UHGV virus genome: UHGV-1443735
Reading direction: 5' to 3' (one strand)
Length of the DNA stretch: 32,176 nt
Source: a virus
Positions 3,073 to 24,765 of the stretch are shown here, in pieces. The notes below the pieces were generated by a model. That model made no database searches, had not been told where the DNA came from, and saw only the letters and a program-made list of their open reading frames with translations. Position 1 is the first letter of the stretch, and each line of letters opens with the position of its first letter. A program made the position numbers and the translations under genes.

Positions 3073-3361
3073 TACTGATAGCGCCATAGCGTGAGCGGTA
3101 ATTACGCAGGCGCGGGTCGATATATTCAGGGAAGTGGGTATATGTGGCTTTGCGGAATGGTCGGATTGATGTCTGGTAAATTCGCTCGCGTTCTTCTTTC
3201 TCTGCAAGCCATATACAATGGCGAAATTCCTTTTCCTCTTTCGTTTCCTGCGGTAGCGACATTATCAGGTCGTAGTTTTTTCTGAATTTATCCAGCACCT
3301 CCGATACGGAATTGCCGGAACAGCGGCGCGGGTCATCCGCACCATACAGAGGCGCTGGCAT
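3065..3361 (-). CDS. hypothetical protein (98 aa)
   Basis: ORF immediately downstream of the SSB-like gene; AAGG-like RBS upstream of the ATG. Confidence 0.55.
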
Positions 3362-5119: not shown

Positions 5120-6088
5120 TTAGTAGGTTATTTTTGTTGCGAATACTTCGCCTTTTACGATGGCTGTTATGATATTTTTAGCAACATCTTCTGATGCGCC
5201 AACCTTGATAAGGTCAGCAAGTATTTTGTTATTTACTTCTTTCCGGTGAGCTTTATCCTTTGCTCTACACTCTTCTTCTTCCTTGATTCTTTTTTCTTCT
5301 GCTATTCTGGCTTGCTCTTTTGCTTCAGCCTCGCGCCGGATTCGTTCAGCCTCCTCCTGTGCTTTTCGGCGTTCTGCTTCAATTGCCGCCTGCTTTTCTC
5401 TTTCAGCTCGTTCTGCTGCCTCTTTTGCTTCGCGCTGTGCTCGTTGCTCGGCTTCAATGCGTTCACGCTCTGCACGTTCCGCTGCGGCCTTAGCTTCTGC
5501 TTCTCGCCTTGCTGCTGCTTCAATTTCGGCTTTTGCCTTTGCTTCGGCTTCTGCTCTGGCTTTCTCTTCAGCTTCTCTTTTTAAGCGTTCTTCATGCTCT
5601 CGCTTTTCCTGCTCCGCTTTGAGTCTTGCCTCTTCTCTTTGGCGGTCAAATTCGCGATCCATCAAAATAGCTATTTCATGGTCAGACTCAATTTGCTTTG
5701 CGAGAGCTTCAGCTGCTGCCTTAGCTTCTTCTTCGGCTTTAATCCGTGCCTGTTCCTCCTCATAATCAGTAAGAGGCTGGCGTGCCTTGGATTTCAGCTC
5801 ATCAAGGCGATCACGCACTGTCTTGCGGTTGGCATCAATTAGCTTTGGAATTTCCTTCAGTTCAGCAACAAGGTCTTTTCCAAGACCATCGAGATATGTT
5901 TTCGTCTGCGCAACTTTATACGCCAGAGAAGCGATCTCCTTTCTGCCCTTTGCCGTTGTGATATCAGGCACAAAGGACATAACTTCACGTTCAACCTTTT
6001 GAAGGATTTCTTCAATCTGGTCGGCAGACTGAAATACAGTCATTGCATTTGCTTTTTCAATAACAACTAAATCTGTTACTTCACTCAT
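5120..6088 (-). CDS. coiled-coil protein with TolA-like E/A/K/R-rich repeat region (about 322 aa)
   Basis: Start refined to ATG at 6088 with GGAGG at 5-nt spacing. The central ~130 residues are low-complexity charged repeats (AEAKAKAEIEAAARREAEAK...); N- and C-terminal regions are non-repetitive. Confidence 0.7.
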   Translation of the reverse strand: MSEVTDLVVIEKANAMTVFQSADQIEEILQKVEREVMSFVPDITTAKGRKEIASLAYKVAQTKTYLDGLGKDLVAELKEIPKLIDANRKTVRDRLDELKSKARQPLTDYEEEQARIKAEEEAKAAAEALAKQIESDHEIAILMDREFDRQREEARLKAEQEKREHEERLKREAEEKARAEAEAKAKAEIEAAARREAEAKAAAERAERERIEAEQRAQREAKEAAERAEREKQAAIEAERRKAQEEAERIRREAEAKEQARIAEEKRIKEEEECRAKDKAHRKEVNNKILADLIKVGASEDVAKNIITAIVKGEVFATKITY

Positions 6089-6100
6089 ATATCCTCCATC

Positions 6101-6127
6101 AAAAAAATCGCCCTCACATCGGAGGGC
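6101..6127 (-). terminator. rho-independent terminator (minus strand)
   Basis: 6-bp stem GCCCTC/GAGGGC with 6-nt loop, followed on the minus strand by a run of 7 T, immediately upstream of the RBS of the 5120-6088 gene. Confidence 0.6.
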
Positions 6128-6222
6128 AAAGAAGATTTCCAATAATCAGAACAAGTCGGCTCCTGTTTAGTTACGAGCGACATTGCTCCGTGTATTCACT
6201 CGTTGGAATGAATACACAGTGC

Positions 6223-6411
6223 TTATTCGTCATGCATTTCAGGTAATTCTTCGTATTCGACTCCCCATACGAGTTTACACCAAGTGACTCGCTCATATCT
6301 TTTACAAAAATCAGACCACATAACTTGTGTTCCATCATGGTTTGTTATTACTTCTGTAATATCACCAACACTAACAAAACTGGTATTAGAAGCAGTTATT
6401 TTTACTTTCAT
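6223..6411 (-). CDS. small hypothetical protein (62 aa)
   Basis: ORF whose start overlaps the upstream gene's stop (TAATG). Confidence 0.5.
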   Translation of the reverse strand: MKVKITASNTSFVSVGDITEVITNHDGTQVMWSDFCKRYERVTWCKLVWGVEYEELPEMHDE

Positions 6412-6698
6412 TACTTATCCCCAAGAGCTTTTCTGATTGCTGCAAGACCTTTATTAACAGCTTCATACCATTCTGGATATGTTGTCGTTGTTCTATTTTT
6501 GGATTGCTTAAGTAATAACTGAAGTGCTTCGAGAAGGTCAGGTGCTGCCGCTATCAGTAGCGCATCCTCCCTTTCATTTCTTGTTGCTGCTTCAATGTAT
6601 GTGTCACCAATCGTCACACCATGGAACGTAGTCATCATCTCGTTGACGTTTCTAACCGTGTACTTCCATTTACCAGGCGTACCCTTAAACTCTTTCAT
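6411..6698 (-). CDS. hypothetical protein (about 95 aa)
   Basis: Start refined to ATG at 6698 (the ORF-track start at 6704 is a GTG) with GAGGTG RBS. Confidence 0.55.
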   Translation of the reverse strand: MKEFKGTPGKWKYTVRNVNEMMTTFHGVTIGDTYIEAATRNEREDALLIAAAPDLLEALQLLLKQSKNRTTTTYPEWYEAVNKGLAAIRKALGDK

Positions 6699-6715
6699 AT
6701 TCACCTCTGTTGTTT

Positions 6716-17821: not shown

Positions 17822-18319
17822 ATGAAATCATTAACCCTCTTCAATCAACCAATTCGTATCGGTGAAGATGGCATGATCTGCCTCACTGATATGTGGAAAG
17901 CCAGTGGTAAAAGTGAATCTGAATCGCCTTACCACTACCTGCGAAACAAGCAGACCAAAGAGTTCTTAGCCGAGTTGGAGAAAAACCACGAATCTGTGGT
18001 TTTTACTGAGCGCGGTGTACACGGTGGAACATATGGCGGGAAGTTTGTTGCTTACGATTATGCGGCTTGGTTAAACCCCGGGTTCAAGTACGCGGCCTAT
18101 AAAGTCCTCGATGACTACTTCACCGGAGAACTTCAGCATCGCAACAGCTTAAGTGCGCAGCTCAACATGAAATGTCATGAGTTTGACCAGAAGAAAGACA
18201 TGGCGAGCTTCTGCGGACAAGGGCTGGCAGCATGGCGCTATACGAAGCCAGTGTTGGTCGCTGAGATTAACTCCCTGGCTAACCAGCTGCAGATTACGAT
18301 CCCCGGGCTTCCGGGATGA
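17822..18319 (+). CDS. KilA-N domain protein (165 aa)
   Basis: N-terminal region (...IRIGEDGMICLTDMWKASGKSE...EFLAELEKN...YAAWLNPGFKYAAYKVLDDYF) resembles the KilA-N/APSES-type DNA-binding domain. Confidence 0.6.
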   Translation: MKSLTLFNQPIRIGEDGMICLTDMWKASGKSESESPYHYLRNKQTKEFLAELEKNHESVVFTERGVHGGTYGGKFVAYDYAAWLNPGFKYAAYKVLDDYFTGELQHRNSLSAQLNMKCHEFDQKKDMASFCGQGLAAWRYTKPVLVAEINSLANQLQITIPGLPG

Positions 18320-23871: not shown

Positions 23872-24765
23872 ATGGACCAGATGGCAGAAAACACACCAGA
23901 AGTTGAAATCGAACCCGACGCGTCAGAGCAGATTCCTGATGATGTCGAACTGGCTGAAGAAGTCGAAAAAGCAGATGGCAGTGAGTCCTCAGGAAATGAT
24001 GCAGAGGAAGCTACTGACACTGATGACGACGAATCAGAACAGGAATTCTACTTTGGTGACGAAAAGCTGGATTCGCCAACCAGCGAAGATGGCGCAGAGC
24101 ATGGACTGGTAAAACACCTGCGCAAGACGATTAAAGAGAAAGACCGCGAGCTGAAAGAGCTGATGCGTCAGTCTCAGAAACCCGTCGAGCAGCAGCCGGT
24201 AATCACTCAACCACCGCGAATGCCAAAACTGGATGATGAGGACATCGGTTTCGATGAAGAAATCTACCAGCAACGCATGGCTAAGTGGGCAGAGGATAAC
24301 GGCAAGTACCAGCAACAGGAGATGGCTCGCAAGCAGAAGGAGCAGGAGCTTCAGGCTGCCTATCAAGAGCGATTATCCAAATATCAGCAACGTGTTAAGG
24401 CTCTCAAAGTTCCTGGCTATCAGGAAGCTGAGCAGGCCGTACTCGAGGAAATCCCCATCGAGACACAAAACGCGATCCTGTTTGAGTCAGAGAAGCCGGA
24501 AATCGTTGTTCTGGCACTCGGTCGCAACGCTGAACTGCGCAAGCAACTGGCAGAAGCTACCAACCCCGTAGCAATTGGTCGTCTGCTGGAACGTATCGAA
24601 TCGAAGGCCAGAATCATGCCAAAAGCAAAAACCACGGCAGCCACAACCCCGACAGTTAAGGGGAGCAACGGCGCAGTAATCAACAACCTCGACAAATTGA
24701 AAGCCAAGGCGCTGGAAACTGGTGACTGGACGCCGTATTTCGCCGCTAAAAAGGCAAAAAAATAA
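23872..24765 (+). CDS. scaffolding protein (P22 gp8-like) (297 aa)
   Basis: Acidic N-terminus, coiled-coil middle and basic C-terminus (...KAKALETGDWTPYFAAKKAKK); located between portal and coat. Confidence 0.8.
   Translation: MDQMAENTPEVEIEPDASEQIPDDVELAEEVEKADGSESSGNDAEEATDTDDDESEQEFYFGDEKLDSPTSEDGAEHGLVKHLRKTIKEKDRELKELMRQSQKPVEQQPVITQPPRMPKLDDEDIGFDEEIYQQRMAKWAEDNGKYQQQEMARKQKEQELQAAYQERLSKYQQRVKALKVPGYQEAEQAVLEEIPIETQNAILFESEKPEIVVLALGRNAELRKQLAEATNPVAIGRLLERIESKARIMPKAKTTAATTPTVKGSNGAVINNLDKLKAKALETGDWTPYFAAKKAKK

Follow-up and report, generated by a model that had tools for sequence, protein, structure and literature searches.

We examined a short intergenic hairpin in a 32,176-nt stretch of viral DNA, the genome UHGV-1443735 (hereafter the window), which derives from a lambdoid or P22-like phage whose early-left (pL) operon corresponds to the minus strand. 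The gene for the N antiterminator (Pfam N36, PHROG 271) and a nutL boxB-like stem lie upstream, placing the hairpin region within the pL operon on that strand. In the direction of transcription, the hairpin follows a 62-aa gene and stands one nucleotide before the homologue of the lambda small RNA (sRNA) PreS, also known as LPR1, which ends in the intrinsic terminator tL2a (Table 1). A Sf6 gene 33-like gene and a Sak4-like recombination gene lie further downstream. The neighbouring sRNA and the tL2a terminator are context that an earlier note on this DNA, which had drawn attention to an inverted repeat at this position, had missed.

Table 1. Features at and around the hairpin, in positions of the window
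Feature	Start	End	Strand	Description
nutL boxB-like stem	8395	8409		GCCCUGAAGAAGGGC
N antiterminator gene	7794	8126	-	Pfam N36, PHROG 271
Terminator-like stem-loop	6729	6746	-	AGGCCGCAUAGUCGGCCU then UUUAUUUU; counterpart in lambda, Sf6 and mEp234 lies ~25 nt before the hairpin
97-aa gene	6411	6704	-	PHROG 1273 (family of unassigned function); part of a two-gene insertion
62-aa gene	6223	6411	-	PHROG 10407 (family of unassigned function); last bases and TAA stop within the conserved ..GAATAA before the hairpin
Extended hairpin	6185	6222	-	Quasi-palindrome, 17 positions; -20.2 kcal/mol; conserved flanks GCAC (5') and GAGC (3') added
Upper hairpin, allele A	6190	6217	-	GUGUAUUCAUUC-CAAC-GAGUGAAUACAC; 12-bp stem, one G.U pair, tetraloop
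Linker nucleotide (-1)	6189	6189	-	Single unpaired base between hairpin and PreS +1; G, U, A or C in relatives
PreS (LPR1) homologue, 88 nt	6101	6188	-	Starts GAGCAAUGUCGC, ends in tL2a; from alignment to lambda
Intrinsic terminator tL2a	6101	6129	-	GCCCUCC-GAUG-UGAGGGC then U7; PreS 3' end
Sf6 gene 33-like gene, 322 aa	5120	6088	-	In the slot of lambda ea10

The arms of the inverted repeat are GTGTATTCA (6190-6198) and TGAATACAC (6209-6217), with a 10-nt spacer (6199-6208) between them. The perfect 9-bp repeat claimed in the earlier note is present in sequence, and only its interval, given there as 6191-6219, was shifted by 1-2 nt from the real 6190-6217. Its placement on the 3' side of the 62-aa gene, which is encoded on the minus strand directly upstream, and the absence of a U or T tract 3' of the repeat on either strand also proved correct. 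A bare perfect 9-bp palindrome is within chance expectation: four such repeats with loops of 3-12 nt occur in the window, compared with 1.4 ± 1.3 (maximum 5) in 40 first-order Markov simulations. The other three lie at 17981, 23359 and 25929 and have loops of 6-11 nt. The reality of the feature is founded on its conservation and context, not on the 9-mer. Folding, a check proposed in the earlier note, extended the stem to 12 bp in the minus-strand RNA, where the upper hairpin reached -14.2 kcal/mol and none of 200 shuffles was equally stable (z = -7.1); the plus-strand version contains an A.C mismatch and is weaker (-11.6 kcal/mol). The flanks can form a lower stem of G-C, C-G, an A.A mismatch and then C-G, the last involving the +1 base, and homology with other phages starts at 6222. 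The hairpin is followed by GGAGCAAUGUCGC, with no U-tract.

In lambda, LPR1, since renamed PreS, was described as an Hfq-bound RNA of ~88 nt, found also as a processed ~68-nt form; its gene lies between ea10 and ral, and its 3' end is at tL2a. It activates dnaN translation and is made in the lytic cycle only, with none in lysogens (Silverman et al., bioRxiv 10.1101/2024.10.31.621285). The window hairpin is identical to lambda J02459 34013-34040, and lambda PreS occupies ~33925-34011. Between window 6188-6101 and lambda the seed is identical, and the only differences fall in the terminator loop and the length of the T-run. Three published details bear on the 5' end: the homology arm of the full lpr1 deletion ends ...GTGAATACACG, the primer for T7 in-vitro transcription starts GGAGCAATG (boundary primers P969 and P1103), and GAUUAUUG begins at position 42 in the numbered alaS pairing (Supplementary Fig. 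S3E) (bioRxiv 10.1101/2024.10.31.621285). Taken together, these place PreS +1 at the G of GAGC (GAGCAAUG, GAGCAATG). The hairpin (6217-6190) ends at -2, 1 nt before +1 and outside the sRNA as its authors define it, and their full lpr1 deletion keeps the hairpin intact.

The window and lambda share the core of this cassette: a homologous 88-nt RNA gene, preceded by the same hairpin and ending at a GC-rich stem with poly-U, in the pL operon downstream of N. They differ in what surrounds it, as the upstream neighbour is ral with a terminator in lambda and the 62-aa gene in the window, while the downstream gene is ea10 in lambda and Sf6 gp33-like in the window. When the window is compared with lambda and Sf6, its 97-aa and 62-aa genes form an insertion between GGCATAAACAACAGA and ATAAGCACTG, spanning 6223-6710 on the minus strand, between the terminator-like hairpin (6746-6729) and the PreS hairpin; Sf6 and lambda read CAGAATAAACACTGCACTG without interruption at the insertion point. 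The 62-aa gene relies on the conserved ATAA for its stop codon. In other phages, several unrelated upstream genes likewise end ..CGAATAA and take their stop codon from the conserved block.

The palindrome, for which the earlier note had suggested a search in related phages, is present and conserved in them. The block from hairpin to terminator was found in 327 phage records at 95-100% identity, including lambda, Sf6, the HK-series, mEp, Stx-converting and some Salmonella phages. In complete E. coli genomes, the block occurs at 3193 places in 2234 of 5426 genomes and the hairpin at 2886 places in 2048 genomes (about 40%); most of the E. coli records inspected have no feature annotated beneath the block. 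The conserved part is an island bounded by the hairpin foot (6222) and the terminator T-run (6101), and the sequences on either side of it are unrelated. The block is found in many upstream and several downstream contexts, and allele A of the hairpin (defined below) alone has ~25 distinct upstream ones. For comparison, we gathered several hundred loci from IMG/VR and reference phages by anchoring on the PreS start; most are close relatives (E. coli and Salmonella prophages), so that site counts are not independent events. The PreS body and the tL2a stem are near-invariant in relatives, and the tL2a loop varies (CGAU, CAGU, CAAU, UAAU) with a U-run of 5-7 nt. A scan of GTDB genomes gave 21 matches, mostly lambda DNA contamination, and added no diversity. 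Lambda-identical contigs in this set (L235-L238, L241-L247, L249, L250, L253) came from assemblies of unrelated bacteria, namely Pseudoxanthomonas, Shewanella, Bradyrhizobium, Kitasatospora, Neobacillus and others; several are ~48.4-48.5 kb or of low coverage, and they are almost certainly library contamination. The PreS block is absent from the pL region of phi80. The phi80 'M3 RNA' is a classical substrate of RNase P. In phage PA45 (L126, KP682389, ~1274-1330), an insertion sequence element with 'mobile element protein' genes lies inside PreS just upstream of GTAACTAAAC and removes the 5' part of the sRNA together with the hairpin. The whole window gave no Rfam match at gathering thresholds, and a permissive scan of 5950-6400 returned chance-level hits only (E > 1).

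The slot directly 5' of GAGCAAU holds at least five hairpin alleles that are unrelated in sequence: allele A (GUGUAUUCAUUC-NNNN-GAGUGAAUACAC; 194 loci, as in the window and lambda), allele B (UAUAGCAGAUU-URCG-AGUCUGCUAUG; 96 loci, as in mEp043), allele C (AAUGCGGA...UCCGCAUU; 27 loci, as in ES18), allele D (UAAUGACCAU-UUUAAUA-GUGGUCAUUG; 28 loci, as in BTP1) and allele E (UUAUCGACUUUC-ACA-GAGAGUCGAUAG; 3 loci, as in L377 and L292). A hairpin of at least 8 bp lies within 30 nt upstream of 382 of the 383 GAGCAAT sites, nearly all of these hairpins having 11-12 bp and a loop of 3-5 nt, and the gap between the last paired base and +1 is exactly 1 nt at 376 sites. Each allele tested was far more stable than its shuffles (0/200). 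A folding energy of -9 kcal/mol or lower in the 34 nt before +1 was reached by 98% of 330 loci, compared with 5% of 652 control windows on the same strand. All alleles keep the flanks GCRC and GAGC, which can form a short lower stem around an A.A mismatch with the +1 G paired at its top. At the base of the stem, three A/U pairs precede a G-C or C-G pair in alleles B, C, D and E, and allele A starts with G-C.

Variation within alleles points in the same direction. A compensatory change from A-U to U-A was found within allele B at five loci (L309 with three identical loci, and L389), and pairing is kept through a G.U change at L167, L234 and L286. Among 187 allele-A loci, the four loop sites account for 58 variant occurrences (at least nine loop versions) and the 24 stem sites for 7; the -1 nucleotide differs in 44 of them. 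Every fixed wobble is a G.U pair when read on the sense strand, and of 44 versions compared, 39 fold more stably in the sense than in the antisense orientation. Singleton stem variants carry no strand information, since transitions create a G.U pair on either strand about equally often. The covariation score was 0.233 compared with 0.093 after shuffling, a value reached in none of 500 shuffles, on a covariance-model alignment in which allele B is partly mis-registered; for the same reason its figure of 81% paired understates the pairing. MAFFT also mis-registers the arms of A and B, and per-sequence folding was relied on instead. In the rare variants L049 and L254 the lower stem has been made perfect through opposite arms (GCACTG to GCTCCG; CGGAGC to CAGTGC), which looks like quasipalindrome (template-switch) correction or compensatory selection. 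What counts as independent evidence is the existence of five alleles, a handful of compensatory changes and the much freer variation of loops than of stems. Together, the comparison across loci shows a sense-strand RNA hairpin that appears to have been selected for its fold, length and position at an intergenic pL junction.

This pattern bears on the suggestion in the earlier note of a protein-binding site. Perfect 9-bp half-sites spaced 19 bp centre to centre in an intergenic region would suit a palindromic DNA operator for a dimeric phage or host protein. However, no half-site is common to the five alleles, and the flanking genes shuffle independently of the allele, leaving no co-varying cognate protein. 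The spacer is hypervariable while the arms stay paired, partly by sense-only G.U wobbles that are meaningless in duplex DNA, and the window contains 10 matches to the half-site with at most one mismatch, compared with 6.8 expected, which is no enrichment. An informal look at the LexA and CRP consensus sequences revealed no resemblance. We regard an operator as highly improbable, and this part of the earlier proposal was abandoned.

The position of a stable hairpin in a terminator-rich operon (the tL2 cluster), directly upstream of an RNA 5' end, would also be compatible with a transcription signal, such as a weak or factor-dependent terminator, a pause hairpin or a promoter for PreS. An intrinsic terminator was rejected, in agreement with the earlier note, as a U-tract occurs in none of the five alleles and the terminator scan near the hairpin flagged only the separate tL2a site (6129-6101, minus strand). 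A PreS promoter was also rejected: no sigma-70-like -10/-35 elements were found on the minus strand, and manual inspection of the -10 region revealed no TAnnnT hexamer in alleles A and B, which are wholly different where a -10 element would lie. Moreover, the absence of PreS expression from lysogens is what synthesis from pL would predict. A signal of this class therefore has hardly any probability left.

The unit, comprising GCAC, an 11-12-bp stem with a loop of 3-5 nt, one nucleotide and GAGCAAU, whose first G is the reported PreS +1, is not exclusive to PreS, because it also precedes cIII or a small gene. In E. coli VL40 (L258, 2490-2560) and about eight IMG/VR prophages, hairpin A with GGAGCAAU is joined directly to the cIII leader, and PreS is absent. 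In this cIII-adjacent form GGAGCAAT is joined to TTAAAGCGTAAATAAGGAGCACACCATG (L260-L262, L265, L267, L268, L270, L272), with at least two junction variants and at least two upstream contexts. The hairpin alleles also reassort with two sRNA bodies, the E. coli-type PreS and a Salmonella-type relative of ~75% identity by eye, which has a different putative seed and terminator and is carried by ES18, epsilon34, g341c, BTP1 and P22-like phages. The relative shares GAGCAAUAUCGCUCGUAAC and then diverges (...CAAACGAGGACGACGACUCGUUCUGGUUAAUCGAAAAAUCAUCCCUUGAUGUUAUUU, terminator GCCGCUC..GGGCGGCUUUUUU). It lies at 701-806 in both ES18 (L273) and BTP1 (L274) and also in L263, L269, L277 and others; Salmonella records annotate at most 'terminator' there, and BTP1 has a hypothetical coding sequence (BTP1_033) across hairpin and sRNA. 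Several Salmonella-type loci have a second unit ~270 nt upstream, in which an allele B hairpin with GAGCAAUAUCGC is followed by a small protein gene ending ..GAAUAA and then by an allele A hairpin with the sRNA, so that the tandem units carry different alleles. Such tandem loci, with an allele-B hairpin and GAGCAATATCGC before the small gene, include L277 (280-760), L284, L345, L360, L372 and L378.

These arrangements also weigh on the view that the repeat has no function, being a chance repeat or a neutral hitch-hiker with PreS. Perfect 9-bp inverted repeats are not rare, as counted above, the block is 96-100% identical among relatives, which gives the conservation of allele A little power, and phage HK022 tolerates a truncated hairpin. 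Nevertheless, this view does not account for the replacement of the hairpin by four others that match it in length and in distance from +1, for the compensatory change in allele B or for the excess of loop over stem variation, and the hairpin is kept where PreS is absent, namely in the cIII-adjacent form and before the small gene. The absence of any function is therefore very improbable.

The interval 6222-6101 has the character of a lambdoid boundary sequence, that is, a short conserved intergenic block between non-homologous modules. The Sf6 record (GenBank AF547987), which annotates the homologous terminator as 'tL2A' by homology to lambda, labels 24156-24268 'bsq4; boundary sequence'. These 113 bp correspond to window ~6110-6222, contain hairpin and PreS up to the terminator, and have the hairpin foot 6222 as their upstream end; they are annotated as a conserved DNA linker at a mosaic junction, whereas neither the sRNA nor the multi-allele structured core was recognised. 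Because the block is conserved between unrelated flanking modules, it is also a de facto homology patch for module exchange among lambdoid phages.

The label raises the alternative that the element is primarily a DNA-level cassette boundary or recombination signal, with flanks ..GAATAAGCAC and GAGCAAT.. around a structured, variable core marking the place at which accessory genes of the early-left operon are exchanged, and acting as a single-stranded DNA hairpin or as a homology patch. Mosaic junctions do concentrate at particular points: the 5' foot, with its many contexts, the loop (in HK022), +1 (where alleles are swapped), +8 (in the cIII-adjacent form) and ~+20 (E-type versus S-type body). 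The two-gene insertion of the window sits exactly before the element; some loci have tandem units with different alleles around one small gene; and the changes at L049 and L254 resemble quasipalindrome correction, which is a DNA process. Homologous exchange, however, needs sequence and not fold, and leaves five sets of complementary arms of equal length unexplained. On the transcribed strand every wobble reads as G.U, stability drops for the antisense or DNA-symmetric folds, and the element has no dedicated recombinase associated with it. Cruciform-driven events would also require a palindrome longer than 12 bp. We consider a primary role at the DNA level quite unlikely.

The hairpin is likely to be an RNA structure of the sense strand that has been selected for a function at the junction, whether in processing, stability or insulation. 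The narrower reading that we favour, and which is probably correct, is that of a conserved intergenic punctuation unit of the pL transcript with a role in processing or stability. This retains the 'RNA processing or stability element' of the earlier note, on the grounds that the fold is better on the transcribed strand, abuts the PreS 5' end and is conserved as a fold rather than as a sequence over at least five alleles. In the proposed mechanism, an endonuclease would cleave the long pL transcript at the hairpin's 3' foot, separating -1 from +1. PreS would thereby acquire its 5' end, as would the message downstream of those units that stand before cIII or a small gene, while the upstream mRNA, in the window the one encoding the 62-aa protein, would retain the hairpin at its 3' terminus as a barrier to 3'-5' exonucleases.

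RNase III, acting in a single-cut mode as in the signals of phage T7, is the leading candidate for this putative cut, although we hold its identification as the enzyme to be somewhat less than an even chance. It is the most likely enzyme because the stem has 11-12 bp in every allele, the loop is free and the putative scissile position lies at a mismatch between upper and lower stem. E. coli RNase III needs at least 11 bp between the cut and the tetraloop and has no requirement for loop sequence, and when an internal loop or bulge is present, only one strand is cut and the hairpin left at the 3' end is protective (PMC1540722). The lengths of 11-12 bp at nearly all 383 sites and the hypervariable loops agree with these properties, and the unpaired or mismatched -1 and the A.A mismatch in the 3-bp lower stem are candidate features for cleavage of one strand. 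The window hairpin resembles the single-cut signals R1.1 and uR1.1 of T7 early mRNA (PMC1540722) in having ~11-12 bp from the loop to the putative cut, a loop of irrelevant sequence, a mismatch or internal loop at the putative scissile position with a lower stem below it, and a predicted outcome in which the upstream RNA receives a protective 3' hairpin. It differs in that its lower stem comprises only 3 bp and a mismatch, allele A has G-C at the putative cut, there is no sequence similarity, and the cut in the window is a prediction. A further comparison is offered by other stability stem-loops of polycistronic mRNAs and by lambda sib, a long double-cut RNase III site downstream of int that destabilises int mRNA (retroregulation). 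Sib and the window hairpin are both structured elements in the same pL transcript with a presumed influence on the fate of a neighbouring message, but the small size of the window hairpin sets it apart, as does the predicted stabilisation of the upstream RNA after a single cut.

Several observations weigh against the processing unit and its proposed cleavage. The outermost upper-stem pair of allele A is G-C, and in uR1.1 a G-C or C-G pair beside the scissile bond suppresses cleavage (PMC1540722). Lambda-type contexts have an intrinsic terminator hairpin ~25 nt upstream, which would make a pure 3' stabiliser partly redundant. The PreS 5' end derives from primer design and an approximate 88-nt northern band, and the exact cut site could differ. 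HK022 carries PreS with a 6-bp hairpin remnant only (-4.9 kcal/mol), its junction falling inside the hairpin; the hairpin is therefore not indispensable for carrying the sRNA. Template switching, a palindrome-generating DNA mechanism, could create complementary arms without selection at the RNA level, and the loci are closely related, so that their counts are not independent.

An alternative at the RNA level is that the hairpin is passive, serving as a barrier to 3'-5' exonucleases for the upstream message and/or as an insulator that prevents the PreS seed from pairing with variable upstream sequence, while another nuclease makes the 5' end (RNase E/G cutting nearby, or RNase P at the foot of PreS's own 5' stem). 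Most known Hfq sRNAs derived from 3' untranslated regions are released by RNase E. The hairpin folds independently in context, with PreS's own stem (GAGCAA/UUGUUC) beginning right after it, and ~25 or more unrelated upstream sequences would make insulation useful. For RNase P in particular, alleles B, D and E and many copies of allele A have U at -1, with G at +1, and both are preferences of that enzyme. However, the junction, CACG followed by GAGCAAUG, is not AU-rich and offers a single unpaired nucleotide, which makes it a poor RNase E site; the RCCA-like 3' tail expected for RNase P is absent; and a mere barrier or insulator would need neither an 11-12-bp stem nor a fixed 1-nt gap over five alleles. 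A passive role is a minority possibility, at about one chance in five.

A bolder extension of the processing reading is that the unit serves as general cassette punctuation of lambdoid early-left operons, recognised by shape, with arms that may have diversified since recombination between identical tandem copies would delete the intervening gene. If so, accessory genes and sRNAs would travel with a border hairpin, and every cassette RNA would be cut and stabilised alike; integron attC sites, in which conserved flanks enclose a structured core of free sequence, would then be functionally analogous. Both the A and B units in tandem and the reassortment of alleles with two sRNA bodies are compatible with this idea and no proof of it, and we regard it as improbable. 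The Rac prophage of E. coli K-12 also has an sRNA gene in the equivalent early-left interval, KilS (b4833; L390 8406-8503), upstream of kil (kilR). Unlike the window sRNA, KilS has no sequence similarity to PreS and is not preceded by the hairpin unit, and as Rac has KilS and no hairpin unit, K-12 RNase maps are unusable here. An sRNA gene at this early-left position may be a recurring lambdoid feature.

The sequence itself (lambda, 1982), the Sf6 boundary-sequence annotation and the adjacent sRNA are already known. Apparently undescribed are the hairpin abutting PreS +1, its several unrelated length-matched alleles and the recurrence of the unit before other genes. The PreS preprint, its supplement and a 2025 review (PMC12197685) do not discuss a role of the hairpin, and a literature search on tL2/tL2a, ea10/ral/RNase III, pL processing sites and boundary sequences, with older papers outside its range, found nothing on the hairpin itself.

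The hairpin reaches P22-like, ES18-like and epsilon34-like phages of Salmonella and is unannotated in the E. coli records inspected; genome annotation should mark both hairpin and sRNA. When lambda or Stx phages are engineered, for instance, deletions or insertions at this junction may affect how the sRNA is produced and how stable the neighbouring mRNA is. With these results, the lambdoid 'boundary sequence' gains functional RNA content, with no new principle demonstrated. PreS raises host DnaN and thereby aids lambda replication, and the origin of its 5' end is unaddressed in the literature examined; a length-constrained hairpin 1 nt upstream of +1 would offer a specific, testable determinant of PreS biogenesis.

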